This document shows, in pieces, positions 23,436 to 49,083 of a DNA stretch of 64,000 bases. Origin of the DNA: a virus (Duplodnaviria; Caudoviricetes); IMG/VR virus record IMGVR_UViG_3300033518_000398, positions 14,764-78,763 of that record; one strand, written 5' to 3'. Numbering within the stretch: the first letter of the stretch is position 1; each line of letters begins with the position of its first letter. A model generated the notes under the pieces. That model was not told the DNA's origin, searched no databases, and saw nothing but the letters and a program-made list of their open reading frames with translations. The position numbers and the translations under genes are program-made.

Positions 23436-23443
23436 TATATTTG
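23436..23443 (+). promoter_or_regulatory. Bacteroidota sigma70 -7 element (TAnnTTTG) for attenuated tRNA cluster 1
   Basis: TATATTTG with TTTG about 20 nt upstream; same element at 24391, 26500, 42864, 47043, 52882. Confidence 0.75.
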
Positions 23444-23480
23444 CACTCAGAAGTTTTAATAAATGTTATTTGTAGTTGAA

Positions 23481-23555
23481 ATGAAAAATTTAGTGAACAT
23501 AGTGCCCCAACCGCAACAACATCCACAGGATGGTGAATGGGGAAAGTACGCTTAA
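23481..23555 (+). CDS. Attenuator leader peptide 1: MKNLVNIVPQPQQHPQDGEWGKYA
   Basis: Hand-translated 24-aa ORF; PQPQQHPQ run; GAATGGGG 23535-23542 complementary to the terminator 5' arm. Confidence 0.8.
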   Translation: MKNLVNIVPQPQQHPQDGEWGKYA

Positions 23556-23585
23556 TTTTTCAATTGAAGTTTTAAGTTAAACATG

Positions 23586-23614
23586 ACCCCATTCTGAAAA
23601 GAGTGGGGTTTTTT
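23586..23614 (+). terminator. Attenuator terminator 1
   Basis: ACCCCATTC-TGAAAA-GAGTGGGGT followed by a U tract. Confidence 0.85.
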
Positions 23615-23624
23615 ATTTTCATAT

Positions 23625-23702
23625 CTGGGTGTACTGCAGATGGCTATACTACGATGCCTTGGAAGCATCGGTCCGCAGGTTCGAATCCTGCCACTCAGAC
23701 CA
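23625..23702 (+). tRNA. tRNA-Pro(UGG)
   Basis: Cloverleaf; loop CTTGGAA; CCA encoded. Confidence 0.9.
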
Positions 23703-23706
23703 ATAT

Positions 23707-23784
23707 GGTGATTGTAGAGGAATTGGTAGACTCACCTGACTGTGAATCAGGAATCTTGCGGGTTCGAGTCCCGTCTTTCACCCA
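23707..23784 (+). tRNA. tRNA-His(GUG)
   Basis: Loop CTGTGAA; G-1:C73; two acceptor mismatches. Confidence 0.8.
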
Positions 23785-23808
23785 AATATCGTTCTTTTAT
23801 ATGGTTAT

Positions 23809-23882
23809 AGAGTAGTAGCGCAGTTGGTTAGCGTACCGCATTTGGGATGCGGGGGTCGAGAGTTCGAGTCTCTCCTACTCTA
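23809..23882 (+). tRNA. tRNA-Pro(UGG), second copy
   Basis: CCGCA-TTTGGGA-TGCGG anticodon arm. Confidence 0.9.
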
Positions 23883-23887
23883 CTGTG

Positions 23888-23958
23888 TTAGTTGTAGATG
23901 CTGGCATTCTACACGTGACTGTGAATCACGGATACGGGGGTTCGATTCCCCTCTAAAA
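23888..23958 (+). pseudogene. Degenerate tRNA-His(GUG)
   Basis: Intact anticodon arm CGTGA-CTGTGAA-TCACG and T arm; acceptor stem does not pair. Confidence 0.6.
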
Positions 23959-23997
23959 AATTTTTGTACTTAAAGTATTTATCTGAAAATTGTGTAT

Positions 23998-24360
23998 ATG
24001 AAAAAAGGTAATAAACAAATGTTATTTGAGATGATGCATAAGGTTGCAGGAATGCCTTTAAATGAAATGGCAAAACCAATAAAAGAATTTCGTAATACAA
24101 TTGGTGATAAAAAAATGGTTTATTATTTAATGCCAAATACTCCCAAAGCAGAAGAAAAGGGTTATGATACTTCAATATTTAAGGTTGATAATTATCATGG
24201 TAACGTGACATTATCATATTATTGGTTAAATAGAGAATCAGATGAAAATTGGTATAAACCCAAATATGGTACTCATGTAGATGAATATAAATCACAATAT
24301 ATTTCACAAAGTAGAGAACCAGAAAAAGCAAATATGTTAATTCAAAAGCATAATTTATAA
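23998..24360 (+). CDS. LFE-leader family protein inserted in tRNA cluster
   Basis: MKKGNKQMLFEMMHKVAGMPLNE; GTATTTAT at 23975-23982. Confidence 0.7.
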   Translation: MKKGNKQMLFEMMHKVAGMPLNEMAKPIKEFRNTIGDKKMVYYLMPNTPKAEEKGYDTSIFKVDNYHGNVTLSYYWLNRESDENWYKPKYGTHVDEYKSQYISQSREPEKANMLIQKHNL

Positions 24361-24406
24361 TATTATTGCATTAAATTATATTTATTTATATATATTTGCA
24401 TAATAT

Positions 24407-24479
24407 TGACCTGTGGTGTAATTGGCAACACGTCTCACTTTGACTGAGAAGAGTCCAAGTTCGAGCCTTGGCAGGTCAA
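24407..24479 (+). tRNA. tRNA-Gln(UUG)
   Basis: TCTCA-CTTTGAC-TGAGA; acceptor TGACCTG/CAGGTCA. Confidence 0.9.
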
Positions 24480-24495
24480 CTAATTTTCTTGGAAT

Positions 24496-24723
24496 ATGGA
24501 TGAATTGGAAAAATTACGAAAAGAAAATGAAGATTTGAAAGACAAATTAACTGATTTGACTTTTGAATTGAATTATAATAAACAAACCGAGTTAATTGAA
24601 TTCGTTCGTGAATTATATCAATCATTAGGTAATGTTGGTAAAAATCTTACAAAGAAAGAAATGATTGAAAATCTGAGAAACCATATTCGAGAGTTTACAA
24701 AAAATAATAAAATACAATTATGA
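24496..24723 (+). CDS. Small coiled-coil hypothetical protein
   Basis: 75 aa ORF. Confidence 0.65.
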   Translation: MDELEKLRKENEDLKDKLTDLTFELNYNKQTELIEFVRELYQSLGNVGKNLTKKEMIENLRNHIREFTKNNKIQL

Positions 24724-25124
24724 GTAATTATAATCTTTACCTCGATGACTTTCGTCAACCAATTGATAGTAGTTACTATCTTAATAATCCCATATATGGA
24801 AACTTAAAATGGGAAGTTGTTCGAAGTTATGATGAATTTGTGAAAATAATAACTGAAAAAGGTATTCCTGATATCGTGAGTTTCGACCATGATTTGGCTG
24901 ATGAACATTACGACCCAGAATTACATGGTAGTGAAACCTATAACGAAAAATACGATAATTTTGTATTTAAAACTGGATATGATTGCGCCAAATGGTTTAT
25001 TAATTATTGTATTGATAACCAAAAAGATGTACCAGAAAAAATTTTCATTCATTCTATGAATCCAGCAGGAAGTGCTAATATTAAATCGTTATTTGATACA
25101 TATAATAAGTATCGTAGAATTTAA
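24720..25124 (+). CDS. Cyclic-phosphate-processing receiver domain protein
   Basis: LYLDDFRQP...SFDHDL...TGYDCAKW...IHSMNPAG motifs. Confidence 0.8.
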   Translation: MSNYNLYLDDFRQPIDSSYYLNNPIYGNLKWEVVRSYDEFVKIITEKGIPDIVSFDHDLADEHYDPELHGSETYNEKYDNFVFKTGYDCAKWFINYCIDNQKDVPEKIFIHSMNPAGSANIKSLFDTYNKYRRI

Positions 25125-25853
25125 TTACCTTCCTCCAGCACTCCTTGAACCAGAAGTACCTGTTGAACTTCCAGCACTTCTTGTTGGTTGTGAATAACTA
25201 CGTGACGTTGTATTTGACGGTGCTCTTGTCGGTGCAGTACGAGAATATGAGGGAGCAGTTGAGGGTGCGGTTCTTGTTGGTGTATTATATGTACGTGATT
25301 GAGTATTTGATGTAGGTCTGGTTGTAGTATTTCTACTTCGAGTCACATCATTATTATATGTCGGACGTGTAGATGTTCGAGGTACAGTATAGGTTGGTTT
25401 ATATTCTCTTGTATATGTTGGTTTTGATTTGATGTTAACATGGTTTGAAACCACGTATCTATGTCCATAATAATGGTTAATATAATAGCTGTTACGACCC
25501 CAATATCCATAATAGTAGCTATTATAATATCTATTATAGTAATATGGTGTATACCAATAATTATAATAAAAGGGGTCATAATGGAGACAATAGGGACGAT
25601 ATACATATCCAAATGTTAATAAAACCCGATAATTTGGTTGGTCATTGTCTTCATAATAGTTGTTAATTATAACGGGTTCAGATTTTTCTTTAACAATTAT
25701 ATAAACAGTATCTGTTTTTGTCGTGTCAGGAGTTCCATATAATTCTTTATCTTTCTCAATACGATATTTTTCGTAATTTGAAAGTTCAGCTTCTTGTCCA
25801 ATTAAAACAAATGCAAAGAGAATTGCGAGTAGTGTTAATAGTATCTTTTTCAT
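25125..25853 (-). CDS. Secreted protein with Tyr-rich and Ser/Thr/Arg-rich low-complexity regions
   Basis: N-terminal signal peptide; composition. Confidence 0.7.
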   Translation of the reverse strand: MKKILLTLLAILFAFVLIGQEAELSNYEKYRIEKDKELYGTPDTTKTDTVYIIVKEKSEPVIINNYYEDNDQPNYRVLLTFGYVYRPYCLHYDPFYYNYWYTPYYYNRYYNSYYYGYWGRNSYYINHYYGHRYVVSNHVNIKSKPTYTREYKPTYTVPRTSTRPTYNNDVTRSRNTTTRPTSNTQSRTYNTPTRTAPSTAPSYSRTAPTRAPSNTTSRSYSQPTRSAGSSTGTSGSRSAGGR

Positions 25854-25935
25854 GACTTGTGTGTTTTTAATTAAAAGACAATTAACGTGCCAAAATTTTA
25901 CATGAAAATCAACTATTTATAGTAAATTTCATTAC

Positions 25936-26421
25936 ATGAAAAAACAAGATAGCAAACAAAGACTTTTTGAAGTTATGGGAAGACTTGACAAAACATTCAA
26001 GTCTAAATTAAATGAAAATATGGGTGTAGCACTTAATGAAGAAAGTAGACCATTATATGATATAGCTCAAGAAATATATCAAGACTGGAAACCAGTACAT
26101 CCTTATGCAAAAGAATATCTTGATGCAATGTCAAGTCTATCGTCAATAAATGATAAATATATGTTTGATTCTGGAAGTGAGATTGTAGCACGTTTTCTTT
26201 CAAATGCAAGTCAATGGAAAGGCGAAACAGCTAAAAGAATAAAGACCGAACTAAAACAAATGTTGGGATTGAAAGAGGGTTATTATGATGATGAGGGTGA
26301 TGACTCTGATGCTGGACATACAGTAAATGGTAAATTATTATCTCCAGATGAATATAGGAAATGGAAAGAAGAAGAAGGAGAATATGATGACATGGATAAA
26401 CTTAACAGACCAAGATATTGA
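25936..26421 (+). CDS. LFE-leader family protein
   Basis: MKKQDSKQRLFEVMGRLDKTFKSKLNE, nearly identical to the leader of 17567..18055. Confidence 0.75.
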   Translation: MKKQDSKQRLFEVMGRLDKTFKSKLNENMGVALNEESRPLYDIAQEIYQDWKPVHPYAKEYLDAMSSLSSINDKYMFDSGSEIVARFLSNASQWKGETAKRIKTELKQMLGLKEGYYDDEGDDSDAGHTVNGKLLSPDEYRKWKEEEGEYDDMDKLNRPRY

Positions 26422-26532
26422 AATATCATTAAGAATTAATTTTAATAAGCATATTTATTGATTTTTTTTGGAAAATGTTTGTATTTATGAAAAATTGATT
26501 ATCTTTGCAGAAGAAATTTAAAATTTAAAACA

Positions 26533-26622
26533 ATGAGAAATTTACTCGACATATTAATGGTAGCTTTGGAAGCAGTCCTATTATGGGCAGCAGATGAGGA
26601 TAAAATACGTTCAGTCGGGTAA
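26533..26622 (+). CDS. Attenuator leader peptide 2: MRNLLDILMVALEAVLLWAADEDKIRSVG
   Basis: 29-aa ORF after TATCTTTG promoter (26500); AGTCGGGT 26613-26620 complementary to the terminator 5' arm. Confidence 0.75.
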   Translation: MRNLLDILMVALEAVLLWAADEDKIRSVG

Positions 26623-26653
26623 TACAATATTACACACTCCTTTCTTTAATAAG

Positions 26654-26688
26654 AAAAACCCGACTCTCCACAATAAGTCGGGTTTTTT
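26654..26688 (+). terminator. Attenuator terminator 2
   Basis: AAAAACCCGACT...AGTCGGGTTTTTT. Confidence 0.85.
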
Positions 26689-26702
26689 GTTTTAGTGTGT
26701 AG

Positions 26703-26713
26703 GTTCTTTGACA
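26703..26713 (+). promoter_or_regulatory. boxA-like element
   Basis: GTTCTTTGACA; similar sites at 31619, 39194, 47286 and 48108, all in tRNA-bearing transcripts. Confidence 0.55.
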
Positions 26714-26725
26714 TGTTGGAAATTT

Positions 26726-26796
26726 GGTCTATTGGGGTATGGGTATCCTTGGTGGTTGTCGCCCACCAGAAGCGAGTTCGAGTCTCGCATAGACCG
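26726..26796 (+). tRNA. tRNA-Asp(GUC)
   Basis: Loop TTGTCGC; acceptor GGTCTAT/ATAGACC; G73. Confidence 0.85.
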
Positions 26797-26825
26797 CCTG
26801 ACTTATTTTCTTTTTCTGTGTATTT

Positions 26826-27545
26826 ATGTATATGGAAAAAGAAAATAAGTATTATTTGGTTTATAAAACAACCAATTTGAAAAATGGTAAGTTTTATATT
26901 GGTGTTCACGAAACATATAATCTCAATGACGGTTATTTGGGTTCTGGGAAAGTTCTTAGGAACAGCGTTTATTATCATGGGAAAGAAAATTTTAAAAGGG
27001 AAATTCTTGAATTCTGTGAAGATAAAAAAAGCATGTATCAAAAAGAAAAGGAATTTGTTACTGAAGAACTGATAATGAATTCTAAATGTATGAATTTAGT
27101 TGTTGGTGGAATGGGATTCATTAATGATGAAAAACATCGTGAGGTTTCACAATTAGGTGGTAATGCGACTTCATTGAAACTAAAAAATGACCCAGAATTT
27201 AGAAAGAGACATCAAAAAATTGTCTCGGAGAATATGAAAAAAGCGCATCAATTAGGAAAAATTATACCACCTGATTGGACTGGTAAAAAACATAAAGAAG
27301 AAACAAAAAGAAAAATCGGAATAAAAAATTCAATCAAACAAAGTGGCATTAATAATTCACAATTTGGTACTTGTTGGATAACAAAAAACGGTAATGATAA
27401 AAAAATAAAAAAAGAATACCTTCAAGAATATCTTTCTGAAGGTTGGATTAAAGGTAGATATGCTCGGTTCGAATCCGATATGGGGTACAAAGTATATTCA
27501 ATTTCACAGTGCTTTGGTGTGGTCATTACCTATTTTTTCAAGTAA
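26826..27545 (+). CDS. GIY-YIG homing endonuclease with NUMOD3 (Seg-like)
   Basis: YLVYKTTNLKNGKFYIGVH...YLGSG; WTGKKHKEETKRKIG. Confidence 0.9.
   Translation: MYMEKENKYYLVYKTTNLKNGKFYIGVHETYNLNDGYLGSGKVLRNSVYYHGKENFKREILEFCEDKKSMYQKEKEFVTEELIMNSKCMNLVVGGMGFINDEKHREVSQLGGNATSLKLKNDPEFRKRHQKIVSENMKKAHQLGKIIPPDWTGKKHKEETKRKIGIKNSIKQSGINNSQFGTCWITKNGNDKKIKKEYLQEYLSEGWIKGRYARFESDMGYKVYSISQCFGVVITYFFK
27462..27487 (+). pseudogene. 3' remnant of a tRNA (T arm plus acceptor strand), possibly tRNA-Glu
   Basis: TCGG-TTCGAAT-CCGA then ATGGGGT-A; no 5' half found. Confidence 0.5.
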
Positions 27546-27608
27546 TAATTCATGTCTTTTAAATGATTATTTGAATATTTTTTGTATTTATGATAAACAT
27601 AACAACCA

Positions 27609-27959
27609 ATGAAAATATTAATTGTTGATGATAATACATTAGTACACTATTTGATAAAAGCCATGATTGAAGCAATGATTGAAGAAAATGGTTTTGAATT
27701 GTTTGATGTATATAACGGTGAAGAAGCGGTTGATTTTGCATTAAATAATGAATTGGACTTGATTTTCATGGACATAATGATGCCAATATTAGATGGTATT
27801 GAAGCAACTAAAATAATAAAAAAATTCTCACCCAACATACCAATAATATGTATTAGTGCATATCAACAGAATCAAGAGATATCTCGTTTATTTGATGACA
27901 TAGTTCAAAAACCATTTGTAACTAAGCAAATAATAGGTAAAATTAAAAAATACGAATAA
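27609..27959 (+). CDS. Single-domain response regulator (CheY-like receiver)
   Basis: LIVDD, DLIFMDIMMP, LDGIEA, ISA and KPF motifs. Confidence 0.9.
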   Translation: MKILIVDDNTLVHYLIKAMIEAMIEENGFELFDVYNGEEAVDFALNNELDLIFMDIMMPILDGIEATKIIKKFSPNIPIICISAYQQNQEISRLFDDIVQKPFVTKQIIGKIKKYE

Positions 27960-27988
27960 CATCCAGTATTTATGATAAACCTAAAGTT

Positions 27989-28507
27989 ATGGATTATCAT
28001 ATAATGTTATTTCTGACAATGATTGCAGTATTTGTTTCATATATTGCTGCAGTATGGATTAAATTTGGCGTACAGCCATCAATAAGTGCAAGTTATGATT
28101 GTTGGAAAGGTAATTGGCAATCATTATTCACTCTTTTCTGTTGGGGATTTGCATTTCCTGCAATGATTATTGGTGTAGAGGTAACACCATTGATGTTTTT
28201 CGCAACTGCTGGAATAATGTTCGTTGGTGCTGCATATCAAATAAAAAATCCTTGGGTATATAAATATCACATGATATTTGCAGTATCAGGAATAATTTTC
28301 AGTCAATTAGCAATATATTTTGGTTATGATTTATTATGGTTAAACATTGTGTCTGTTGCGTTAACCGCATTAATATTATTAGCTAAACAATTTCTGGGTT
28401 TAAAGAATCACTTCTGGTGGATGGAGTTAGTGTACTTTGCTGCAATAGTTTATGCTATGGGAACTAAGATTATTCCTCTACTGTATCTAACAACATTTTT
28501 ATTTTAA
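27989..28507 (+). CDS. Multi-pass membrane protein
   Basis: About six hydrophobic segments. Confidence 0.75.
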   Translation: MDYHIMLFLTMIAVFVSYIAAVWIKFGVQPSISASYDCWKGNWQSLFTLFCWGFAFPAMIIGVEVTPLMFFATAGIMFVGAAYQIKNPWVYKYHMIFAVSGIIFSQLAIYFGYDLLWLNIVSVALTALILLAKQFLGLKNHFWWMELVYFAAIVYAMGTKIIPLLYLTTFLF

Positions 28508-28510
28508 TAT

Positions 28511-28581
28511 ACGTCTTTGGTGTAACGGTAGCACGATTCTCTCCAAAAGAATTAGTACTTGTTCGAATCGAGTAAGACGTG
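28511..28581 (+). tRNA. tRNA-Trp(CCA)
   Basis: ATTCT-CTCCAAA-AGAAT; acceptor ACGTCTT/AAGACGT. Confidence 0.85.
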
Positions 28582-28625
28582 CAATATTAAAAACATGCAT
28601 TTAAAATTAATCATTTATTTATTAA

Positions 28626-28934
28626 TTATAAAGTAAAACCCTTGGTAGATTGCCTTTTACCATTCAATACATGATATGTTGTTGTTTCATCTAATTTATG
28701 TTTTTTACAAAAATTTTTAACTGACTTAAATTGATATTTAATACCATTTCTATATAGAATATGTTCTTTATTGTTATATTTTATTCTATTTCTTAATTCG
28801 GTTAGTGTAAAATCATGTTTTTTAAAAACAGTCCAATTTTTAAAAAATGTCATTTTAAGTTTTCTTAACATTAATGACATTAACATCTTATCATTTAAAT
28901 TATTGTCTTTACAAAATTTGGAAAAATTATCCAC
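28626..28934 (-). pseudogene. Homing endonuclease DNA-binding (NUMOD-like) remnant
   Basis: FKSVKNFCKKHKLD...VLNGKRQSTKGF C-terminus; no catalytic domain. Confidence 0.5.
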
Positions 28935-29057
28935 CCCATAAAATTTATTCTTAGTTATAAATACGTAAATATTAACAAAAATTAAATAATATATAAAAAC
29001 TTTGTTTGTTTTTATATATTATTTACATATCTTTGTAATTATTAATAAATTCTTTAT

Positions 29058-29795
29058 ATGCTTATAATAAATCATAAGAAAAAGGATTATTATGATGGTG
29101 TTGCTGGTACTACTGGCATTGATAAGACCATTGTATATCATCGTGAAGTAATTGAACTTGAAGAAGATAAACTACCCAAACAATTTAGAAGAAAAAGTAA
29201 TTGGAGAAAAGAAGATATTAATCCATTACGTGAGTTGAGTACATTTAAGTTAAAAAAAGAATTTCATGATGTTTGTGAAGACTATTCATATTTTATAATT
29301 GGCTTTTGTGGTAAACTATATATAGGTTGGAAACTTTATCGTGAGGAAATATTCCCATACATGGTCGATACTGAAATCACATTTGATTCCGAGTACATGA
29401 AATCTATTTTAGAACCAAAATCTTGGTATAATAATCTCGAAGATAATATTAATTATATTCAGAAGTTTGATGCGATTCAGATTTTCAGAGATTTAAAAAC
29501 ACCAGTTTTTGTATTTGATAATGATTATAGTAGAACACAACTTGATACCAAACATTATTCGATTAGAAATTATAATCCGAAATTTTTCGTAAACCCAGTT
29601 CTAAAAGAGTATCAATTTTATAAAGTGTTTGAATCATTTCAAGCTTTTCAAGAAATTCAGATGTTTCTTGGTGGTGTACTTGGTAGTGGTGAAAAAAACA
29701 TTGTAGAAGTGGCTGATAAATATAAAATTACCCAGCATGGGTTTGATAAATGGAGTTTTAGAAAAATGTCTGAAAATGGAAAAAGAACTACATAA
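29058..29795 (+). CDS. Hypothetical protein
   Basis: 245 aa; TATCTTTG promoter at about 29028. Confidence 0.75.
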   Translation: MLIINHKKKDYYDGVAGTTGIDKTIVYHREVIELEEDKLPKQFRRKSNWRKEDINPLRELSTFKLKKEFHDVCEDYSYFIIGFCGKLYIGWKLYREEIFPYMVDTEITFDSEYMKSILEPKSWYNNLEDNINYIQKFDAIQIFRDLKTPVFVFDNDYSRTQLDTKHYSIRNYNPKFFVNPVLKEYQFYKVFESFQAFQEIQMFLGGVLGSGEKNIVEVADKYKITQHGFDKWSFRKMSENGKRTT

Positions 29796-30060
29796 TATTT
29801 ATATAATACCAGCAGTATTTGTTAGATACAGAGAAGATGGCAACGTGATTTTAAGATGTTTACAGGGTAAAGAAACTGTTGACAGGGCATTTGAACCCAA
29901 TTTAATAAAAGGTATTGAAAACCCAAAGTATTTATTGCTGGGAATCATGGCTGGTGTTGGATACATGCAGTTAAATGTTTGCGATGGTGAAGAGTTTGTG
30001 AATTTATTCATAAAAAAATGGAATGTGTTGTATCAGGATGTTAATTATAAATTAAAATAG
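29776..30060 (+). CDS. Hypothetical protein
   Basis: ORF track; start moved to the second ATG. Confidence 0.6.
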   Translation: MEKELHNIYIIPAVFVRYREDGNVILRCLQGKETVDRAFEPNLIKGIENPKYLLLGIMAGVGYMQLNVCDGEEFVNLFIKKWNVLYQDVNYKLK

Positions 30061-30175
30061 TGTTGCTAACCACTCTATAGGAGAACGTGACTTACGGACA
30101 TTGAGTGATTAATGGTTTCAGTATGTAAGAAGCGCACACGATTTCCGCAACATTATTTTTGTTCATTGATATTAT

Positions 30176-30540
30176 GGGGGCGACTTGGATTTGATTAGAT
30201 GTCAGATTGGTAAAGTAAGCAAGTCTTAGTTGAATCAGACTAAGTAAAAAAGGTTCAAAGCAGAAATGCAAACAATTTTTCAGAGGACATGATGTCCTTC
30301 TCAACTTCTGTAACAAGAGGTATCACCGTTTTCGAGAGTGCTGAACTCGAAATGGCTGCTTGAGAACAATAAACGGCAAAAACTTCTGGTGAAGTAAGTT
30401 ATGAATAAGTTAGTAACGAATCCCGAAGCGAAACTAATATTAAACTGTTATATTTTGCTGATTTAGAAAAATCGGATAAACTTGTAGAAAACCTATTAAT
30501 CACATTTAAGACGAGGGTTCGAATCCCTCCGCTTCCACCA
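30176..30540 (+). ncRNA. ssrA: tmRNA
   Basis: Acceptor GGGGGCG/CGCTTCC-A-CCA with G3:U; T arm GAGGG-TTCGAAT-CCCTC; tag ORF 30268-30363 ending MAA-stop. Confidence 0.9.
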
Positions 30541-30562
30541 ATTTATTTAAAATCAATTAGTT

Positions 30563-30991
30563 ATGAATTCGAAGTTTGAAGAAATGAGTAAGAAATTGCA
30601 AGAATTTCTTGACTCAGCAGAAGGTGATGAATATTTTGAAAAACTGGATAGAAAGAATAAAATTCAGGAAGGTCGTTATAGACGTTTCGAAAAATATCTT
30701 GAAACCCATGACTTTGATAAACTAATTTATCGTTTAATTCTGGAACACGGTGAACAATGGCGTGAAAAATGTTATCATAATGGCTGTGAGGTTTATCCAA
30801 ACAATAAACTACAATTTATCATTGACTACGTTTTTGAAACCTTTGAACCAATTAGTGTATCTCAAATCGAAACTATGTTTAATACCGACATCAGGTTCTT
30901 TAGAGGATATTTTTTCAGAATAATGCATGGACAGGGTTCTGTTTTTGATTTGTATAATGGTGACGATTTTAGGCATTTATTAAGTGCTTGA
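30563..30991 (+). CDS. Hypothetical protein
   Basis: 142 aa ORF. Confidence 0.7.
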   Translation: MNSKFEEMSKKLQEFLDSAEGDEYFEKLDRKNKIQEGRYRRFEKYLETHDFDKLIYRLILEHGEQWREKCYHNGCEVYPNNKLQFIIDYVFETFEPISVSQIETMFNTDIRFFRGYFFRIMHGQGSVFDLYNGDDFRHLLSA

Positions 30992-30994
30992 TTT

Positions 30995-31024
30995 GGCGGG
31001 ATGGTGAAACTGGTAGACACGCTG
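30995..31024 (+). pseudogene. 5' fragment of a Leu-type tRNA
   Basis: GGCGGGA-TG-GTGAAACTGGTAGACAC-GCTG, truncated before the anticodon loop. Confidence 0.6.
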
Positions 31025-31068
31025 TAATCTTTTTCCTGAGTGTGTAGTATTTATGAAAAATAAATATT

Positions 31069-31535
31069 ATGCCGAAACAGATTAAAAGTAGAATTAATGA
31101 TGAATATTTTATCTCAGTATGTAAATCATCAAAGACTATGGCGCAAGCAGCAGCCACATTAAAGATACATTTCAATAGTTTTAGAAGACGTGCAATTATT
31201 TTAGAATGTTATAAAACAAATCAAAGTGGAAAGGGAACGAGGAAAAGACCTTCGAAACTAATACCAATAGAAGATATAATATTTGAAAATAAACACCCTG
31301 AATATCAGACATTTAAATTAAAAAAAAATTAATTAAGGAAGGATATAAAAAAAATGAATGTGAAGAATGTGGACAAAAAGAAGTGTGGAACAATAATAAA
31401 CTTGAAATGGAATTAGACCATATTGATGGCAATAGAACAAATCATTTGTTGACGAATTTAAAAATGTTATGTCCTAATTGTCATAGTCAAACAAAAACAT
31501 TTTGTGGTAAAAATAAAAATGGGGATGTGTTGTAA
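31069..31535 (+). CDS. HNH homing endonuclease split by a -1 frameshift in an A9 tract
   Basis: Frame 1 ends FKLKKN* at 31332; -1 frame gives KLIKEG...CEECG...ELDHIDGNRTN...LCPNCHSQT and ends at TAA 31533-31535. Confidence 0.8.
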
Positions 31536-31606
31536 CTGGTAGCCAAGACGGACTTAAAATTCGTTGTTCAGAAATGAACGTGTGGGTTCGACTCCCACCA
31601 TCCCTA
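31521..31606 (+). tRNA. tRNA-Leu(UAA)
   Basis: ACGGA-CTTAAAA-TTCGT; long variable arm; A73. Confidence 0.9.
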
Positions 31607-31645
31607 CAAACACTATCGCTCTTTGACATATAGGAGAATTTTATA

Positions 31646-31957: not shown

Positions 31958-32001
31958 TATTAAAAGTTGTCAAGGTCGGTAGTGTTTTTTAAATAAAATG
32001 T

Positions 32002-32268: not shown

Positions 32269-32425
32269 AAAATTACATAAAAATTACACCGATTGTCATC
32301 CTAAAAAATTAGGAAAAGGTTGGGTGAATTGGTGGGAAGCAGAACTTGGTGGAATTGATAAGGGTAGTGAACGTCAAGAAGCTAAGAAAGAAATTAGAAA
32401 AGAACTCGATGAAAAAGTTAACTAA
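32246..32425 (+). CDS. Small basic hypothetical protein
   Basis: MIPYGKNKK...NWWEAE...ERQEAKKEI. Confidence 0.55.
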   Translation: MIPYGKNKKLHKNYTDCHPKKLGKGWVNWWEAELGGIDKGSERQEAKKEIRKELDEKVN

Positions 32426-39040: not shown

Positions 39041-39130
39041 ATGAGAACATTTGGAACATATTATCTTTATAAATCTTATAAGAAAACTCTTATGAGAATC
39101 GGGATTTTTATGTCCAAAACGCAAAGATAA
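39041..39130 (+). CDS. Attenuator leader peptide 3: MRTFGTYYLYKSYKKTLMRIGIFMSKTQR
   Basis: 29 aa with YYLYKSYKK run; GAATCGGG 39096-39103 complementary to the terminator 5' arm. Confidence 0.8.
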   Translation: MRTFGTYYLYKSYKKTLMRIGIFMSKTQR

Positions 39131-39156
39131 GCAATGATATTTGTGTATTGAAACAG

Positions 39157-39185
39157 AAACCCGATTCGTAAGATTCGGGTTTTTT
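39157..39185 (+). terminator. Attenuator terminator 3
   Basis: AAACCCGATTC-GTAA-GATTCGGGTTTTTT. Confidence 0.85.
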
Positions 39186-39225
39186 GTTATATTATTCTTT
39201 GAAGATTTGAAAGCGAAATGAAATT

Positions 39226-39314
39226 GGGAGTACGGCAACGATGGTGGTGTTGCGCTAAACTGTAAATTTAGTCCCTTCGGGTAAACATTGGAGGTTCGAA
39301 TCCTTCTGCTCTCA
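39226..39314 (+). tRNA. tRNA-Tyr(GUA)
   Basis: CTAAA-CTGTAAA-TTTAG; long variable arm. Confidence 0.9.
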
Positions 39315-39319
39315 CAAAT

Positions 39320-39393
39320 TCCCTCGTAGTTTAATTGGTAAAACCCCATACTTTTAATATGCGAAAGTCCCAGTTCGAGTCTGGGCGAGGGAA
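39320..39393 (+). tRNA. tRNA-Lys(UUU)
   Basis: Loop CTTTTAA; acceptor TCCCTCG/CGAGGGA. Confidence 0.85.
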
Positions 39394-39517
39394 CTCTGTG
39401 ATTTTCGAGTCTTAATCATGTGTTAAATTTATTTAGTTTATAAAAAAATCCTTGCATTTTTAAATAAAATGTATTATATTTGTTGAAAATAACTTTAAGC
39501 TAAAGTAATTTGAAAAA

Positions 39518-42903: not shown

Positions 42904-45900
42904 ATGGCACAAAAAACCCTAAAAACCTACACAAAACAAGAAGTTGAAAAAGCAACATTAAACTATTTTAAAGGAGATGGATTAGCTACCGATGTATGGA
43001 TGAAAAAATATTGTTTAAAGGATGAAAACAATTATTACGAACTCACTCCTGATGATATGCATAAAAGAATTGCAAGTGAACTTGCAAGAATAGAAGCTAA
43101 ATATCCAAACCCACTTACCGAAGAACAAATTTTTGAAACATTGAAAAATTTTAAGAGAATTGTACCACAAGGAAGTCCGATGTCAGGAATTGGAAATAAT
43201 TTTCAGGTAGTATCTATTGGTAATTGTTTTGTTATTGGAAATTATGGTGATGGTGATTCTTATGGTGGAATATTGAATATCGACCAAGAACAGGTTCAAT
43301 TAATGAAACGCAGGGGTGGCGTTGGACATGATTTATCACATATTCGTCCAGCAGGTAGTCCAGTAAAAAATAGTGCAATTAGTAGTACAGGTATCGTACC
43401 CTTTATGGAAAGATATTCAAACAGTACCAGAGAGGTTGCACAAGACGGTAGACGTGGAGCACTTATGCTCAGTGTGTCGATTAAACATCCAGATTCTGAA
43501 GCATTTATTGATGCCAAACTTGAATCTGGTAAGGTAACAGGTGCTAATGTTTCAGTTAAAATCACCGATGAATTCATGAAAGCAGTAATGAATAATAATA
43601 TGTTTCAACAGCAATATCCAATAGATAGTGATAACCCTAAATATGTTAAAAGCATTGACGCTCAAAAACTTTGGAAGAAAATTGTATATAATGCATGGAA
43701 ATCAGCCGAACCCGGTATCTTGTTTTGGGATAAAATAATTGGTGAATCAATACCTTCTTGTTATGGTAAGGAATGGATTGAAAGAAGTACTAATCCATGT
43801 GTTAGTGAAGATACATTAGTATTAACACATCATGGTTATTATGAAATTAGTGAGTTAGTAGATAAGCCAACATTTGTTTGGAATGGTATGAATTTCTCCG
43901 AAGTTACGCCAACAATTACTGGTTATAATCAGAAAATGTTAAAAGTTATCTTTAGTGATGGTTCTGAATTGAAATGTACACCATATCATGGATTTTATAC
44001 TTGGGAAGGTTTTGAACGTGATGGAAAATCAATAAAAAAGGAAGCTAAAGATTTAATCGTTGGAGATAAACTCGAAAAACATGAATTTCCAACACTTTTT
44101 GACCATCAAGTTTTTCATGTCGATAAAACTTTTTATACGTTAGGATTTTTTGCTGGTGATGGTTTTGTGAAAAGAGATAGCACAGCACATGTATCGTTAT
44201 ATGGTGCAAAGAAAAATCTTCTTGATAAATTAGATGTAATTGGTAATGTTTCTGAAGATATTGAAAATGATAAATTAACAATACGTGTTGACTTACCTGT
44301 AGATTATTTTGGAATTGATTTACATGAACTAAAAAAATATGTTCCTAAACGTCATGATAATAATTCATCGGCAATGATGTCATGGTTGGCAGGTATTATA
44401 GATTCTGATGGATGTCGTAATTCAGAAGAAGGTTCAATTTCAATATCATCAATAGATAAACAATTCTTAATGGATATTAAGTTACATCTTTTGAACGTAA
44501 TGGGTGTCAGTGGTAGTGTAATTGATGAAAAAGAAGGTGGGTTACATGAAATTAAAGGCGTTAAATATGATTGTAATAAATCATATCGTTTAATAATTAG
44601 TGCATATAATGTTAAAAAACTTTATGATTTAGGTTTACGTACCTATCGTGTTAAAATCGATGATGTTAATCCGAACCGTGATGCAAGTAGATTCATTACT
44701 GTGAAATCGATTGAGGAAATAGAAGATGCTGAAAAGGTTTATTGTTTTACTGAACCAGAAAGAGGTCGTGGATGTTTCAACGGTATTGTTACTGCGAATT
44801 GTGGCGAGTTACCACTCCCGCCATATGATAGCTGTAGATTACTTGCAATTAATTTATTTGGTTATGTGAGAAATCCGTTTACCAAAGAAGCATATTTTGA
44901 TATGGAAAGTTTTAAGGGCGATGTGATTATATCTATGCGATATATGGATGATATTATCGATTTAGAACTCGAAAAAATCGATAAAATATTAGAAAAAATC
45001 GAATCTGACCCAGAACCTGAAAATTTAAAAAGTGTAGAAAAAGAATTGTGGAATAATATTAGAAGAAAAGCTGAGTTAGGTCGTAGAACTGGACTTGGTG
45101 TTACAGGTGAAGGTGATATGATTGCTGCAATGGGACTACGTTACGGTACTGATGATGCCACCGAATTTAGTGAAGAAGTTCATAAAACATTGAAATTAGA
45201 AGCATATCGCTCAAGTGTTATTATGGCTAAAGAACGTGGTGCATTTCCGATATACGATTGGGATAGAGAAAAATTCAATCCATTTATTCGTAGAATAATG
45301 GATGAGGATACTGAATTATATAATGAAATGGTAACTTTTGGTCGTAGAAACATTGCATTACTTACAATCGCACCGACTGGAACAGTTAGTATTATGACAC
45401 AAACTACATCTGGAATTGAACCAGCATTCTTACCAGTATATATGCGTAGGCGTAAGATTAATCCGCAGGAAAAGGACGTTCGAATTGATTTTATTGATGA
45501 AGAAGGTGTTGCTTGGATGGAATATCCAGTATTTCACCATAAATTTGAAATGTGGTTAGGAATCAATGGCTACGATGTTGAAGTGGTGAAAACCATGAAT
45601 AAGGAACAACTGGATGAAATTGTTAAAAAATCCCCATTTTATAAAGCAACTTCCAATGACGTTGATTGGGTAAAAAAGGTTGAAATGCAAGGCAGGGTTC
45701 AAAGGCATGTTGACCATTCCATAAGCACAACTGTGAACGTCCCTAATGATACAACAGAGGAACTTGTTGGTAAAGTATATGAAACGGGTTGGCGTAGTGG
45801 TTGTAAGGGTATTACTATTTATCGTGATGGTAGTCGTAGTGGTGTGTTGGTTAGTCAAAAAGAAGAAAAGAAAGTAGAAGAACTCCAAGACGTGCATGCA

Positions 45901-46473
45901 CCAAAACGTCCCAAAAGATTAAAAGGTGAAATACATAGGTTTCAGAACAATCTGGAAAAATGGATAGCTGTTGTTGGTATGAAAGATGGTAGACCATATG
46001 AAATCTTTACTGGTGTTAATGCTAATGGTCTTAGTAATTTACCAACAAACGTTAAAGACTGTGAAGTCGTTAAAAATATTATCGAAGTCGAAGTTCTTGA
46101 TGATAACGATAAACCAATTAAAATAAAGAAAAAAAGATATGATATTGAATATGTTGATGTTGATGGCATTAAACAAGTACACACTGGTTTAAATCATGCA
46201 TTCAATCCAGAGTTCTGGAACTATGCCAAGTTAATCTCTGGTATAATGAGACATGGTATGCCAGTTCTTAAACAATACGAATTAATTGAGTCATTGAATT
46301 TTAAAGAAGACTATATTAATACGTGGAAAAATGGTGTGGCACGTGTAATTAAAAAATATATTAAGGATGGTGTTAAAAGCAAAGGAACGTGTCCTGAATG
46401 CGGTGGTACTGATTTTATTTTTCAAGAAGGATGTGTTAAATGTAGTAGTTGTTCTTGGACGAAATGTGGATAA
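42904..46473 (+). CDS. nrdJ: Class II (B12-dependent) ribonucleotide reductase with intein
   Basis: PQGSPM, NPC..E active site, TIAPTGT, C-terminal TSCPD-like region and Zn ribbon; Bacteroidota-like N-terminus. Confidence 0.9.
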   Translation: MAQKTLKTYTKQEVEKATLNYFKGDGLATDVWMKKYCLKDENNYYELTPDDMHKRIASELARIEAKYPNPLTEEQIFETLKNFKRIVPQGSPMSGIGNNFQVVSIGNCFVIGNYGDGDSYGGILNIDQEQVQLMKRRGGVGHDLSHIRPAGSPVKNSAISSTGIVPFMERYSNSTREVAQDGRRGALMLSVSIKHPDSEAFIDAKLESGKVTGANVSVKITDEFMKAVMNNNMFQQQYPIDSDNPKYVKSIDAQKLWKKIVYNAWKSAEPGILFWDKIIGESIPSCYGKEWIERSTNPCVSEDTLVLTHHGYYEISELVDKPTFVWNGMNFSEVTPTITGYNQKMLKVIFSDGSELKCTPYHGFYTWEGFERDGKSIKKEAKDLIVGDKLEKHEFPTLFDHQVFHVDKTFYTLGFFAGDGFVKRDSTAHVSLYGAKKNLLDKLDVIGNVSEDIENDKLTIRVDLPVDYFGIDLHELKKYVPKRHDNNSSAMMSWLAGIIDSDGCRNSEEGSISISSIDKQFLMDIKLHLLNVMGVSGSVIDEKEGGLHEIKGVKYDCNKSYRLIISAYNVKKLYDLGLRTYRVKIDDVNPNRDASRFITVKSIEEIEDAEKVYCFTEPERGRGCFNGIVTANCGELPLPPYDSCRLLAINLFGYVRNPFTKEAYFDMESFKGDVIISMRYMDDIIDLELEKIDKILEKIESDPEPENLKSVEKELWNNIRRKAELGRRTGLGVTGEGDMIAAMGLRYGTDDATEFSEEVHKTLKLEAYRSSVIMAKERGAFPIYDWDREKFNPFIRRIMDEDTELYNEMVTFGRRNIALLTIAPTGTVSIMTQTTSGIEPAFLPVYMRRRKINPQEKDVRIDFIDEEGVAWMEYPVFHHKFEMWLGINGYDVEVVKTMNKEQLDEIVKKSPFYKATSNDVDWVKKVEMQGRVQRHVDHSISTTVNVPNDTTEELVGKVYETGWRSGCKGITIYRDGSRSGVLVSQKEEKKVEELQDVHAPKRPKRLKGEIHRFQNNLEKWIAVVGMKDGRPYEIFTGVNANGLSNLPTNVKDCEVVKNIIEVEVLDDNDKPIKIKKKRYDIEYVDVDGIKQVHTGLNHAFNPEFWNYAKLISGIMRHGMPVLKQYELIESLNFKEDYINTWKNGVARVIKKYIKDGVKSKGTCPECGGTDFIFQEGCVKCSSCSWTKCG
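43798..44799 (+). mobile_element. 334-aa intein with LAGLIDADG endonuclease at the NrdJ active site
   Basis: NP/CVSEDT...GIVTAN/CGE; TLGFFAGDG and WLAGIIDSDG motifs. Confidence 0.9.
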
Positions 46474-47009: not shown

Positions 47010-47102
47010 TTGAAAATAATTTGGAATTATCAAAACTTTATTTACCTTTGCAAAGTATTTAGATGAAAGAGATTTCAAATTTAATCAAAACATATTAAAA
47101 TA

Positions 47103-47231
47103 ATGAAAGCACAGGTATCCAATATTAATATTTCGTCAACGATTAATAGTCGTAATGGAAATGGTATATTCTGTTCAAGTTTTACAGGCAGAAATATAGC
47201 AGATACGGGTTCTGGTTTTCATGAGTCATAA
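47103..47231 (+). CDS. Attenuator leader peptide 4: MKAQVSNINISSTINSRNGNGIFCSSFTGRNIADTGSGFHES
   Basis: 42 aa after TACCTTTG (47043); 8 Ser, 6 Asn, 5 Ile, 5 Gly, 1 Cys; CGGGTTCT 47206-47213 complementary to the terminator 5' arm. Confidence 0.8.
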   Translation: MKAQVSNINISSTINSRNGNGIFCSSFTGRNIADTGSGFHES

Positions 47232-47255
47232 ATAACTCATAAAAATATTAAAAAG

Positions 47256-47285
47256 AACCCGAATTCACAAGATTCGGGTTTTTTT
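47256..47285 (+). terminator. Attenuator terminator 4
   Basis: AACCCGAATT-CACAA-GATTCGGGTT followed by a U tract. Confidence 0.85.
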
Positions 47286-47299
47286 GTTCTTTGAAATAT

Positions 47300-47983
47300 T
47301 TATAATAAAATTTTGGTGCGGATGATTTCATCGATAATTGTGAAATATGTGTATGCCCTATCTATTTTAAAATTAATGAATTTTGATGTGTCTATAATAC
47401 ATAACTCAATTCCCTGTTCTAAACAGGCTTGAAATTTACGGTTATCGTTATTTTGAATCTGGTTTAGTTTATCTTCACCATAAATTGGTTCATAATGAAA
47501 AACACCATTAAGTTCGAATGCAAGTTTAAGTTCTGGAATATAAATATCAAGTTCAGAATTTATAGTAGTTTTATCATTGAAGAAAAAGTCAATGTTTGGA
47601 TATTTTTTTATTAATTCAATGGCAATCCATTTTTCAAGTTTTGAAATTCGAGTACCTTTAGTCTTGTGTGTGTTATTATATGTAATAGAACAAGACCTTG
47701 AGCAGAAATTTTTTGTGGATTTAGAATTTTTTATTTCATAATTCGTTTTAATAATTTCTTTTCCGCAATTACCACACATCACTATGTGTCTTTTAGTTAA
47801 AATTTGATATTGATGTGAACAATTTTGTGAACAAAATTTTGCCGAATTTCTTTTACAATTAATTGCATACATAATTTGTCTTTTTGTTGTATGAAAAGGG
47901 TTACCACAAAATTCGCATTTACATTCAAATAAATCTGTTACTTTTCCAGATATTAATTTTTCATTTTCAAATAATGGTATCAT
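47300..47983 (-). CDS. Homing endonuclease with Zn fingers and PD-(D/E)xK domain, antisense to the tRNA cluster
   Basis: CxxC repeats; ELDIYIPELKLAFELNGVFHY. Confidence 0.85.
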   Translation of the reverse strand: MIPLFENEKLISGKVTDLFECKCEFCGNPFHTTKRQIMYAINCKRNSAKFCSQNCSHQYQILTKRHIVMCGNCGKEIIKTNYEIKNSKSTKNFCSRSCSITYNNTHKTKGTRISKLEKWIAIELIKKYPNIDFFFNDKTTINSELDIYIPELKLAFELNGVFHYEPIYGEDKLNQIQNNDNRKFQACLEQGIELCIIDTSKFINFKIDRAYTYFTIIDEIIRTKILL

Positions 47984-48130
47984 ACGTAAATTTTATTATA
48001 AATACTTTAAAAATTGAATTTCTATTCAGTTTTTAAACTCAAAATAAAATATAACTCTTACTGGTTATAAACATCAAATATAGCCTCTACAGGTTATACC
48101 GTAAGACGTTCATTGACATGCTGGTTTTAT

Positions 48131-48211
48131 GAAGGGTTGCCTGAGTGGTCGAAAGGGACTGTCTGCAAAACAGTTAGGAAACTCACGTGGGTTCAAATCC
48201 CACACCCTTCT
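48131..48211 (+). tRNA. tRNA-Cys(GCA) with extended variable region
   Basis: ACTGT-CTGCAAA-ACAGT; U73; variable TAGGAAACTCAC. Confidence 0.85.
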
Positions 48212-48339
48212 CAAACATTATTTAGTAGTCGTATGCTATAGGACACTCTGGGCGATTGGACACCAGAGTCAACAGAGATAGACAGACAAAAACGTAATGG
48301 GCATGCGTATCGTACAATCCGCAATGGCATGCTAAATAT

Positions 48340-48420
48340 TGTGACGTGGATGAATGGTTTAGTCACCACGCTGATACCGTGGGTCGCAAGACAACGTGGG
48401 TTCGAGTCCCACCGTCACAA
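48340..48420 (+). tRNA. tRNA-Ile(GAU) with long variable arm
   Basis: CCACG-CTGATAC-CGTGG; variable GTC-GCAA-GAC-AAC; A73. Confidence 0.85.
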
Positions 48421-48437
48421 CAAAGTGTTGCAACACT

Positions 48438-48526
48438 GAATGATTAGAATTTCGTAGCATAGTGGTAATGCTGCCCGCAAGAAAGGGTGAAGATTGGTTC
48501 GAGTCCAATCAAAATTTTAATCATTC
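48438..48526 (+). ncRNA. tRNA-like element with about 17-bp extended acceptor stem and atypical anticodon loop
   Basis: D and T arms intact; loop GCAAGAAA; GAATGATTAGAATTTCG pairs with CAAAATTTTAATCATTC (one mismatch). Confidence 0.5.
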
Positions 48527-48532
48527 GTTAAT

Positions 48533-48623
48533 GGATAGGTACTCAAACTGGTTAAGAGGATAGTCTTGAAAACTATTAGGTCGGTTAATCCCCGATGTGT
48601 GAGTTCGAACCTCACTCTATCCG
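48533..48623 (+). tRNA. tRNA-Ser(UGA)
   Basis: ATAGT-CTTGAAA-ACTAT; long variable arm; G73. Confidence 0.9.
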
Positions 48624-48679
48624 CATTATATTATTCGATTATTTAAAATATTTAGAACTATATTTAAATATTTTTTACT

Positions 48680-48751
48680 GCGAGTGTAGCACAACGGCTA
48701 GTGCGTCTGGCTTCCACCCAGAGGATGAGGTTTCGACTACCTCTACTCGCT
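48680..48751 (+). tRNA. tRNA-Gly(UCC)
   Basis: TCTGG-CTTCCAC-CCAGA; U73. Confidence 0.9.
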
Positions 48752-48837
48752 CAACAATGTCTTCCACGCCTCTAAATTATGCGCATCTGGAAGGCTACTT
48801 GTAGAATCCAATCATAGTACTGTGATTGGATTCATAT

Positions 48838-48910
48838 AGTGATGTGGCGCAACGGTCAGCGCAGGACGCTTATATCGTCAAGGTTGTGGGTTCGAATCCC
48901 ACCTTCGCTA
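48838..48910 (+). tRNA. tRNA-Ile(UAU)
   Basis: GACG-CTTATAT-CGTC; A73. Confidence 0.8.
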
Positions 48911-48917
48911 CAAATAT

Positions 48918-49004
48918 GACTTCGTTGCTTTAGTTGGTCGAAAAGTCCAGACTGTTAATCTGGTGAACAATGTTCCATCGCAGGTTCGAATCCTGCCGAA
49001 GTCG
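48918..49004 (+). tRNA. tRNA-Asn(GUU) with long variable arm
   Basis: CCAGA-CTGTTAA-TCTGG; variable T-GAAC-AAT-GTTC-CATC; G73. Confidence 0.85.
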
Positions 49005-49008
49005 CAAT

Positions 49009-49083
49009 GCACCAGTAGCTCAGGGGTAGAGCGTTTGTCCGTTAAACAAAGGGTCGGGATTTCGAAATTCTCTTGGTGCGCCA
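49009..49083 (+). tRNA. tRNA-Asn(GUU), second copy with C33
   Basis: TTTGT-CCGTTAA-ACAAA; CCA encoded. Confidence 0.75.

Follow-up and report, generated by a model that had tools for sequence, protein, structure and literature searches.

We analysed a 64-kb stretch of DNA (the window) from the linear 78.8-kb virus record IMGVR_UViG_3300033518_000398, with a G+C content of 31%. The window holds 25 transfer RNA (tRNA) genes and a transfer-messenger RNA (tmRNA) gene, and also a T4 Rnl1-like RNA ligase, an intein-bearing ribonucleotide reductase and several homing endonucleases. Here we describe four short units, named R1 (at 23481), R2 (26533), R3 (39041) and R4 (47103), which lie upstream of four tRNA blocks and consist of a short open reading frame (ORF, the leader) and a strong intrinsic terminator. 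A preliminary description of this DNA had placed them at exactly these positions, and the tRNA identities that it gave for the downstream blocks were correct as well. The coordinates are collected in Table 1.

By our numbering, segment 1 pairs with segment 2, segment 2 is the putative antiterminator, and segments 3 and 4 are the 5' and 3' arms of the terminator. All four units contain, inside the ORF or at its end, an 8-nucleotide (nt) segment perfectly complementary to the terminator 5' arm, as had been claimed, with p values of 0.0014-0.023 when compared with windows drawn at random from this genome. The terminators at 13433, 23029 and 40317, which served as controls, had no such upstream complement. 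The codon run ends 7-12 nt before the antiterminator, also as previously described. The terminators are GC-rich hairpins followed by a T tract and in R1-R3 end up 11-43 nt upstream of the first tRNA. Directly upstream of Gln 24407, Trp 28511, the tmRNA, Leu 31521, Leu 32519, Met 33375 and the Thr/Arg block at 51248-52443 no attenuator was found. A core AACCCGA...TCGGGTTTT is common to the terminators at 13433-13456, 26653-26688, 39155-39184 and 47251-47285. For the terminator at 37423-37453, which follows the RNA ligase gene, an 8-nt complement was likewise observed upstream (AGCCATTT at 37386, p=0.03); this complement lies inside the ligase ORF and is probably due to chance.

A host-type promoter had been proposed for each unit. 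We observed sites of the form TTTG-N17-21-TAnnTTTG at R1, R2 and R4, while the R3 promoter is a degenerate match to the motif. In the whole window the motif was found 7 times against 5.15 expected from shuffled sequence, which is not above chance, and the case for the promoter-like site of R1 is its plus strand and its location upstream of the leader.

Table 1. Features of the four units and of their tRNA blocks, in window positions (aa, amino acids; G and L numbers, related viral genomes and loci).
Feature	Position	Strand	Basis or remark
R1 promoter-like site TTTG-N19-TAtaTTTG (Bacteroidota-type -33/-7)	23413..23443	+	motif, position
R1 leader ORF, 24 aa, MKNLVNIVPQPQQHPQDGEWGKYA	23481..23555	+	homologues G001, G005, L108, L123, L125
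R1 Pro/Gln/His codon run	23505-23528	+	putative regulatory run within R1 leader
R1 segment 1, CCCCA	23505-23509	+	
R1 segment 2 (putative antiterminator), GAATGGGG	23535-23542	+	perfect 8-nt complement, p 0.0014
R1 intrinsic terminator: 11-bp stem, GAAA loop, T tract	23585..23617 (hairpin 23585-23610)	+	
R1 segment 3, CCCCATTC	23587-23594	+	
tRNA block 1: Pro(tgg), His(gtg), Pro(tgg), His(gtg, weak), ORF 23992-24360, Gln(ttg)	23625..24480	+	tRNA calls
R2 promoter-like site TTTG-N18-TAtcTTTG	26478..26507	+	motif, position
R2 leader ORF, 29 aa, MRNLLDILMVALEAVLLWAADEDKIRSVG	26533..26622	+	>25 homologous leaders before Asp/Glu/Val/Leu/Ala/Trp arrays
R2 segment 1, TTACTCGAC	26542-26550	+	
R2 segment 2, AGTCGGGT, overlaps stop codon	26613-26620	+	perfect 8-nt complement, p 0.015
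R2 intrinsic terminator	26653..26693 (hairpin 26653-26688)	+	
R2 segment 3, ACCCGACT	26658-26665	+	
Decayed tRNA block 2: tRNA-Asp, GIY-YIG gene, tRNA 3' remnant, two ORFs, tRNA-Trp	26726..28582	+	
tRNA-Asp(gtc)	26726-26798	+	ARAGORN
GIY-YIG homing endonuclease	26826-27545	+	phrog_314, 1e-36
tRNA 3' remnant: generic T-arm/3' end	27466-27488	+	
tRNA-Trp(cca)	28511-28582	+	
R3 leader ORF, 29 aa, MRTFGTYYLYKSYKKTLMRIGIFMSKTQR	39041..39130	+	28-sequence alignment
R3 Tyr/Lys codon run	39059-39085	+	within R3 leader
R3 1:2 hairpin, TCTTATAAG with CTTATGAGA	39074-39082 with 39089-39097	+	
R3 segment 2, GAATCGGG	39096-39103	+	perfect 8-nt complement, p 0.007
R3 intrinsic terminator	39155..39190 (hairpin 39155-39184)	+	
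R3 segment 3, CCCGATTC	39160-39167	+	
tRNA block 3: Tyr(gta), Lys(ttt)	39226..39394	+	tRNA calls
R4 promoter-like site TTTG-N19-TAccTTTG	47020..47050	+	motif, position
R4 leader ORF, 42 aa, Ser/Asn/Ile/Gly-rich	47103..47231	+	homologues L001-L006, L039, L049, L053, L074, L096, G005
R4 segment 2, CGGGTTCT	47206-47213	+	perfect 8-nt complement, p 0.023
R4 intrinsic terminator, hairpin usable on minus strand too	47251..47292 (hairpin 47251-47285)	+	
R4 segment 3, AGAACCCG	47254-47261	+	
HNH homing endonuclease gene between R4 unit and block 4	47300..47983	-	phrog_559, E 5e-11
tRNA block 4: Cys, Ile(gat), odd tRNA-like gene, Ser(tga), Gly(tcc), Ile(tat), Asn, Asn	48131..49083	+	

The leaders had been described as enriched in the amino acids of the downstream tRNAs. 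We counted the sensor codons, i.e. those at which a stalled ribosome would leave segment 2 free, and used the phage proteome as the reference. Pro, His and Gln take 6 of the 13 sensor codons in R1 (p=3.7e-4) and all eight positions of the run itself, Tyr and Lys take 7 of 14 in R3 (p=1.4e-3), and Cys, Ile, Ser, Gly and Asn take 20 of 30 in R4 (p=1.3e-5). R2 is the leader for which the claim did not hold in this form: Asp and Trp account for 4 of 22 sensor codons (p=0.077), and significance was reached only with an extended or ancestral tRNA set. For the tRNA sets of the other three blocks, each window leader stayed at background.

The same relation was observed in related phages. We collected 97 distinct leaders in 37 families, took the tRNAs within 2.5 kb downstream and permuted the tRNA sets among families. 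The mean fraction of cognate residues was 0.487, compared with 0.289 after permutation (sd 0.019); none of 20,000 permutations reached the observed value (z=10.4), and since the families share ancestry the p values assume more independence than there is, though the effect is large. Nineteen of the 20 amino acids, with Arg as the exception, were commoner in leaders that have their own tRNA downstream. The matching was confined to the frame of the ORF (0.457, against 0.188 and 0.205 in the other frames, Wilcoxon p about 1e-15), and the leaders have no in-frame stops, compared with 2.5-2.8 per leader in the other frames. Since the match is limited to one frame, it argues for decoding rather than base composition. 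Leader composition tracking tRNA identity was a check suggested by the preliminary description, and its result was positive. That the codon-matched architecture is real and selected seems to us close to certain from these comparisons.

Homologous loci, another suggested check, had a short ORF and a terminator before the tRNAs in all four leader families. A search with the RNA ligase gave 12 viral loci. In nine of them the ligase gene is followed by a Tyr/Lys tRNA block, and all nine blocks are preceded by a Tyr/Lys-rich leader and a terminator. In G001, G005, L006 and L007 the leader, terminator and matching tRNAs are kept across all four leader families. R1 homologues such as MENFVHIQPQPQQHPQ... 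and MKRLVNIVGQPQPQHQHQ... stand upstream of Pro/His/Gln blocks. Those of R2, MKTLLNILLVSLVADLLWADAEDK... among them, precede Asp, Glu, Val, Val, Leu, Leu, Leu, Ala, Ala, ... Trp, and the R4 homologue MKRIAYILVSSLTTTSRIGEGTFCSDF... lies 24-29 nt before Thr, Cys, Asn, Phe, Ser and further tRNAs. In the alignment of the R3 family (28 sequences) the ATG is invariant and indels of the coding part come in threes. A 1-nt deletion in L040 and L051 shifts the conserved GGAATCGGGAAT to another reading frame, and the Tyr/Lys run stays in frame. Since GGAATCGGGAAT is kept in two reading frames, the segment 2 part of the R3 leader is constrained as RNA.

The antiterminator covaries with the terminator arm both within and between families, as it should if the two pair in the way previously proposed. 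In the R1 family the 3/2 pairs are CCCCATTC/GAATGGGG in the window, CCCCGTTC/GAACGGGG in L108 and, with one G-U, CCCTGTTCA/TGAACGGGG in G005. The R3 family has CCCGATTC/GAATCGGG in the window, CCCGAAT/ATTCGGG in L154 and CCTGATTC/GGATCAGG in G005, and other pairs are CCCGACAC/GTGTCGGG, CCACAACC/GGTTGTGG and GAAGACCC/GGGTCTTCA. The R3 1:2 hairpin is 97% paired in the 28-sequence alignment and is compatible with 2:3 pairing. Its closing pair undergoes a compensatory change from G-C to A-U in six sequences, which is synonymous for Lys on one side and replaces Leu by Phe on the other.

The terminator core recurs in hundreds of related viral loci and so made scanning by structure alone feasible. 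We used two patterns that specify segment 2, the terminator arms and the T tract and leave leader coding and downstream genes unconstrained; tRNA proximity was counted for loci with at least 400 nt of downstream sequence. Pattern 1 listed 39 IMG/VR loci, nearly all with a Y/K leader followed by Tyr/Lys tRNAs, and a tRNA was present within 400 nt in 36 of 37 usable loci. Pattern 2 found at least 116 loci; among the matches listed, 93 of 103 usable ones had a tRNA within 400 nt and three further loci had tRNAs 685-882 nt downstream. Taken together, the two patterns place the architecture at well over 100 IMG/VR loci as a lower bound. When pattern 2 was applied to one genome per prokaryote species it gave 124 matches, and a tRNA lay downstream in just one of 116 usable cases. 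This lone match is a 5.9-kb, phage-like contig (37% G+C) with a typical phage leader followed by Asp, Asp, Asp, Glu and Glu, and the association is specific for phage tRNA genes.

Further viral leader classes among the pattern 2 matches each mirror their own array: MKNLRTNTTTATATTTAPVTGGRP... is followed by Pro, Pro, Pro, Ala and Gly tRNAs, MNTINIHMISISNWRRNSH... by His, Trp, Asn, Asn, Ser and Arg, and MKLVNKQIVKHVIQFCQNWYLRVF... by Phe, Ile, Gln, Lys, Val, Tyr, Cys, His, Arg, Trp, Leu and Asn. We also compared terminators in a set from which all those selectable by either scan pattern had been removed. An upstream complement of at least 7 nt was present for 16 of 38 terminators before tRNAs and for 15 of 198 others (odds ratio 8.9, p=5.5e-7).

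Homologues, composition tracking and covariation all support the attenuation that had been proposed, and we consider it probable that the units are ribosome-mediated (leader-peptide) transcription attenuators of phage tRNA operons. A Bacteroidota-type promoter would start the transcript, with the short ORF as its first feature. During smooth translation the ribosome would sit on segment 2 while the polymerase makes segments 3 and 4, the terminator would form and transcription would stop before the first tRNA. A ribosome stalled early would leave segment 2 free to pair with the terminator 5' arm, and the polymerase would read into the tRNA genes. Since the ORF consists mostly of codons of the downstream tRNAs, the stall would mainly signal that usable cognate aminoacyl-tRNA is scarce. 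Once made, the tRNAs would end the stall, which would give the circuit negative feedback. Leader translation, stalling and read-through are the steps that we infer from the sequences.

Folding was modelled with transcripts truncated just before the terminator 3' arm and a 28-nt ribosome mask placed at each codon. In R1 the probability of 2:3 pairing was 0.03 without a ribosome. It rose to about 1.0 when the ribosome stalled at any of codons 1-14, dropped to 0.45 at Pro15, and was 0 at every position from Gln16 up to the stop. This means that R1 would behave as a textbook-like attenuator, in which 1:2 pairing sequesters segment 2 when no ribosome is present. In R2, R3 and R4 the 2:3 pairing was lost only while the ribosome covered segment 2, at codons 25-30, 17-26 and 33-41, respectively. 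R2 and R4 have a long-range 1:2 pairing in the minimum-energy fold which is absent from the ensemble.

Several points weigh against reading the units as attenuators. When the full terminator was present, equilibrium folding with ribosome masks made R3 alone switch, and R1, R2 and R4 held the terminator at any ribosome position; since they do so, the switch must, by these models, be kinetic. In R2-R4 the antiterminator forms without a ribosome and without a clear anti-antiterminator, unlike in trp or his. With the antiterminator as the default, these three would be simpler two-state devices that use nearly the whole ORF as the sensor region, which fits with cognate codons being spread along it. 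The stop codons of R3 and R4 lie too far past segment 2, so that a terminating ribosome no longer masks it, and termination would probably require that the ribosome has not yet left segment 2 when the polymerase moves past the terminator. The match between codon box and anticodon is weak (Leu p=0.04, Ser 0.07, Arg 0.14; Ile was also tried). The R2 array in the window has lost most of the matching tRNAs, and read-through from R4 would have to cross about 850 nt antisense to the HNH gene. The sensor cannot tell tRNA loss from amino-acid starvation, and the model presumes that transcription and translation are coupled in the host.

We weighed three other explanations. In R2-R4 a modelled stall at any codon upstream of segment 2 yields the antiterminator, the leaders hold non-cognate codons too, and the tRNA array of Anabaena responds to general translational stress (PMC8421152). 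The units could thus sense translation capacity or timing in general, with any slowing of ribosomes (shut-off, stress, late infection) releasing the tRNAs and codon specificity being minor. We regard this as improbable, since it leaves unexplained why composition follows the tRNAs across 37 families and for 19 of 20 amino acids, and why one genome carries four different leaders.

Somewhat less probable again is that the units are independent small genes, for peptides or small RNAs, with their own promoter and terminator, and that the tRNAs are transcribed from other promoters. Each unit is indeed a complete promoter-ORF-terminator cassette, the peptide sequences are conserved within families, and R4 is not contiguous with its tRNAs. 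However, segment 2 is kept as nucleotides in two reading frames, leader composition shifts with tRNA content, and the 8-nt complements and their covariation would have no role. The tRNAs also begin 11-43 nt after the T tract, which leaves a promoter no room, and the same pattern almost never precedes tRNAs in bacteria (1/116). The least likely of the three is a translation-independent RNA switch that binds tRNA directly, like a T-box, and uses the triplets as specifier codons. T-box leaders also choose between terminator and antiterminator by tRNA status, but here the signal is confined to a single frame that opens with an invariant ATG and ends at a stop, and codons for up to 12 amino acids per leader cannot be single specifiers. 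No Rfam match to a T-box (RF00230, with its Stem I specifier loop and T-box antiterminator) or riboswitch was obtained at E<=1 in 22-53 kb or at E<=10 in 23.6-26.85 kb.

As leader-peptide attenuators the units would join thrL, ilvL (ilvGMEDA), trpL, hisL, pheL and leuL, in which a short ORF rich in regulatory codons sets the choice between antiterminator and terminator through ribosome position. The leaders thrL and ilvL are multivalent, i.e. one leader senses several amino acids. The attenuation model of pheL was described previously (PMC3082878). The phage units share with the enterobacterial ones the short codon-rich ORF, the mutually exclusive antiterminator and terminator and the predicted sensing of several amino acids. 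They differ in preceding tRNAs and not the biosynthesis or synthetase genes of known leader-peptide attenuators, so that the output would replenish the sensed molecule itself. Moreover, they encode up to about 12 amino-acid types, have a clear candidate for a 1:2 anti-antiterminator only in R1 and R3, and are borne by a phage in a probable Bacteroidota setting.

The pheM leader of E. coli pheST is a case of leader-peptide attenuation of an aminoacyl-tRNA synthetase gene; there a synthetase protein is controlled, a single amino acid is sensed and the system is cellular, whereas the phage-borne units precede tRNAs and would sense several amino acids. The E. coli tRNA-Phe gene pheV was considered as having an attenuator-like leader and rejected: 105 nt separate yqgA and pheV, and they contain no Phe-rich ORF. 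Bacteroid-trp (Rfam RF01692), which we take to be a predicted Trp leader-peptide attenuator of Bacteroidota, stands upstream of tryptophan genes and not of tRNAs; its model matches B. thetaiotaomicron and has no match in this phage record. Among Rfam leader families the best match was Thr_leader, with 29.4 bits at 47219-47288 and 17.2 bits at 26624-26692 and a threshold of 55, and the units belong to no curated Rfam family. T-boxes bind uncharged tRNA directly and do not need translation. Their choice of terminator or antiterminator likewise reports tRNA status, but the phage signal is frame-specific.

Among the systems that we compared, the closest precedent in function is the long tRNA array of Anabaena sp. 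PCC 7120, which is supernumerary, horizontally mobile, silent until translation is impaired, and linked to an rtcB RNA ligase and a homing endonuclease (PMC8421152). Its control was attributed to direct repeats over the -10 box and transcription start and a putative repressor, and the words 'attenuation', 'leader peptide' and 'terminator' are absent from the text (PMC8421152). It resembles the phage region as a mobile tRNA array accompanied by homing endonucleases and by an RNA ligase, which is rtcB in Anabaena and Rnl1-like in the phage; the Anabaena array has one array-wide switch, whereas the phage appears to have a codon-matched sensor for each block. A full-text literature search, with most subscription journals outside its coverage, found no description of leader-peptide attenuation of tRNA genes, in agreement with the preliminary description, whose author knew of none for phage tRNA genes. 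The units would therefore represent Yanofsky-type attenuation in a new form, with tRNA genes as the regulated output.

In this way the logic of attenuation, familiar from metabolic operons, would be extended to the tRNA pool. Most discussions treat phage tRNA genes as constitutive cargo for codon usage or counter-defence; the present data point to a feedback circuit. If this is true, the ribosome gauges the decoding of a codon set and the phage answers with exactly those tRNAs. Leaders with up to a dozen amino acids would then be a read-out of array content, and the units, compact and portable at about 150 nt, could report how available particular tRNAs are. It also becomes directly testable when a phage needs tRNAs of its own, and for what reason. 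A possible but rather doubtful purpose is block-by-block counter-defence, in which a host anticodon nuclease or phage-induced tRNA decay turns on only the matching block. We can speculate that the tRNAs removed would be Lys, Tyr, His, Asn, Asp and others, and that the attenuators cooperate with the phage tmRNA and with the Rnl1-like RNA ligase encoded nearby.

The mismatch of R2 and the displacement of R4 can be explained by their homologues in relatives. The R2 leader contains 7 Leu, 4 Ala, 3 Val, 3 Asp, 2 Glu and 1 Trp. This would fit an ancestral Asp/Glu/Val/Leu/Ala/Trp array that was eroded in the window by the GIY-YIG gene and other ORFs. The 'W..DED' match noted earlier is therefore better seen as a resemblance to that ancestral array, as found in relatives, than as a match to Asp and Trp alone. 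The supposed 'Glu remnant' in block 2 is a generic tRNA T-arm/3' end, so its Glu identity is not established. R4, described earlier as a terminator followed by tRNA genes, sits 846 nt away from them, with the minus-strand HNH gene in between. In relatives this gene is absent from the R4 site and the first tRNA follows the terminator by 22-30 nt. It appears that homing endonuclease genes eroded block 2 and separated R4 from block 4. An HNH-like C-terminal fragment lies at 31407-31535 (+), and homing endonuclease genes are dispersed over the tRNA region. In T4, the homing endonuclease gene segB lies within the tRNA region.

Some tRNA genes of the window are unusual. The second tRNA-His of block 1 scores 31.9 bits with the Rfam tRNA model. 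The same model misses the tRNA-Asp of block 2 even at E<=10, and this gene differs from the Asp tRNAs of relatives in its short D-loop and in its anticodon loop, UUGUCGC, which is unusual. The tRNA-like gene at 48447-48518 (+) in block 4 has a 4-nt anticodon (aaga) according to ARAGORN, is without an Rfam match, and may be a degenerate tRNA or a frameshift-type tRNA. Suppressor-type tRNAs with the anticodons cta (called 'Pyl') and tta (called 'Stop') are carried by relatives (L024:11292, L027:6718 and L103, +2418 after its attenuator), none being seen in the window, and hint at stop-codon reassignment in part of the phage group.

The record is 23% complete according to CheckV, so the phage is probably a giant with a genome of about 300 kb; related giant-phage genomes in IMG/VR reach 326-363 kb. 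A megablast search of 10 kb against phage records matched no cultured relative, tblastn with the RNA ligase of the window gave only matches of about 36% identity or less (Arthrobacter and other phages), and blastn with the R3 unit matched solely tRNA-Tyr genes. In the whole record, 2 of 50 long ORFs (4%) have a Shine-Dalgarno sequence, which is the background level, and positions -14 to -10 before start codons are A-rich. A-rich starts without Shine-Dalgarno sequences and TTTG/TAnnTTTG promoter-like sites both fit Bacteroidota, which are the probable hosts. The sequencing runs listed for window positions 23000-32900 are DNA runs, with no RNA run among them, mostly from microbial-mat metagenomes and also from soil and wetland.

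Three further genes were noted between or near the tRNA blocks. The Rnl1-like RNA ligase (36332-37420, +) matches PF09511 at 1.3e-18 and lies between tRNA blocks; Rnl1 of T4 repairs tRNA cut by anticodon nuclease. The phage tmRNA (30176-30540, +; Rfam 97 bits) is likewise situated between blocks, has an ARAGORN-predicted tag ending in ...ELEMAA and is kept in L002-L007. The gene for the large subunit of ribonucleotide reductase (42904-46473, +) is split by an intein that carries a homing endonuclease domain of the LAGLIDADG type.

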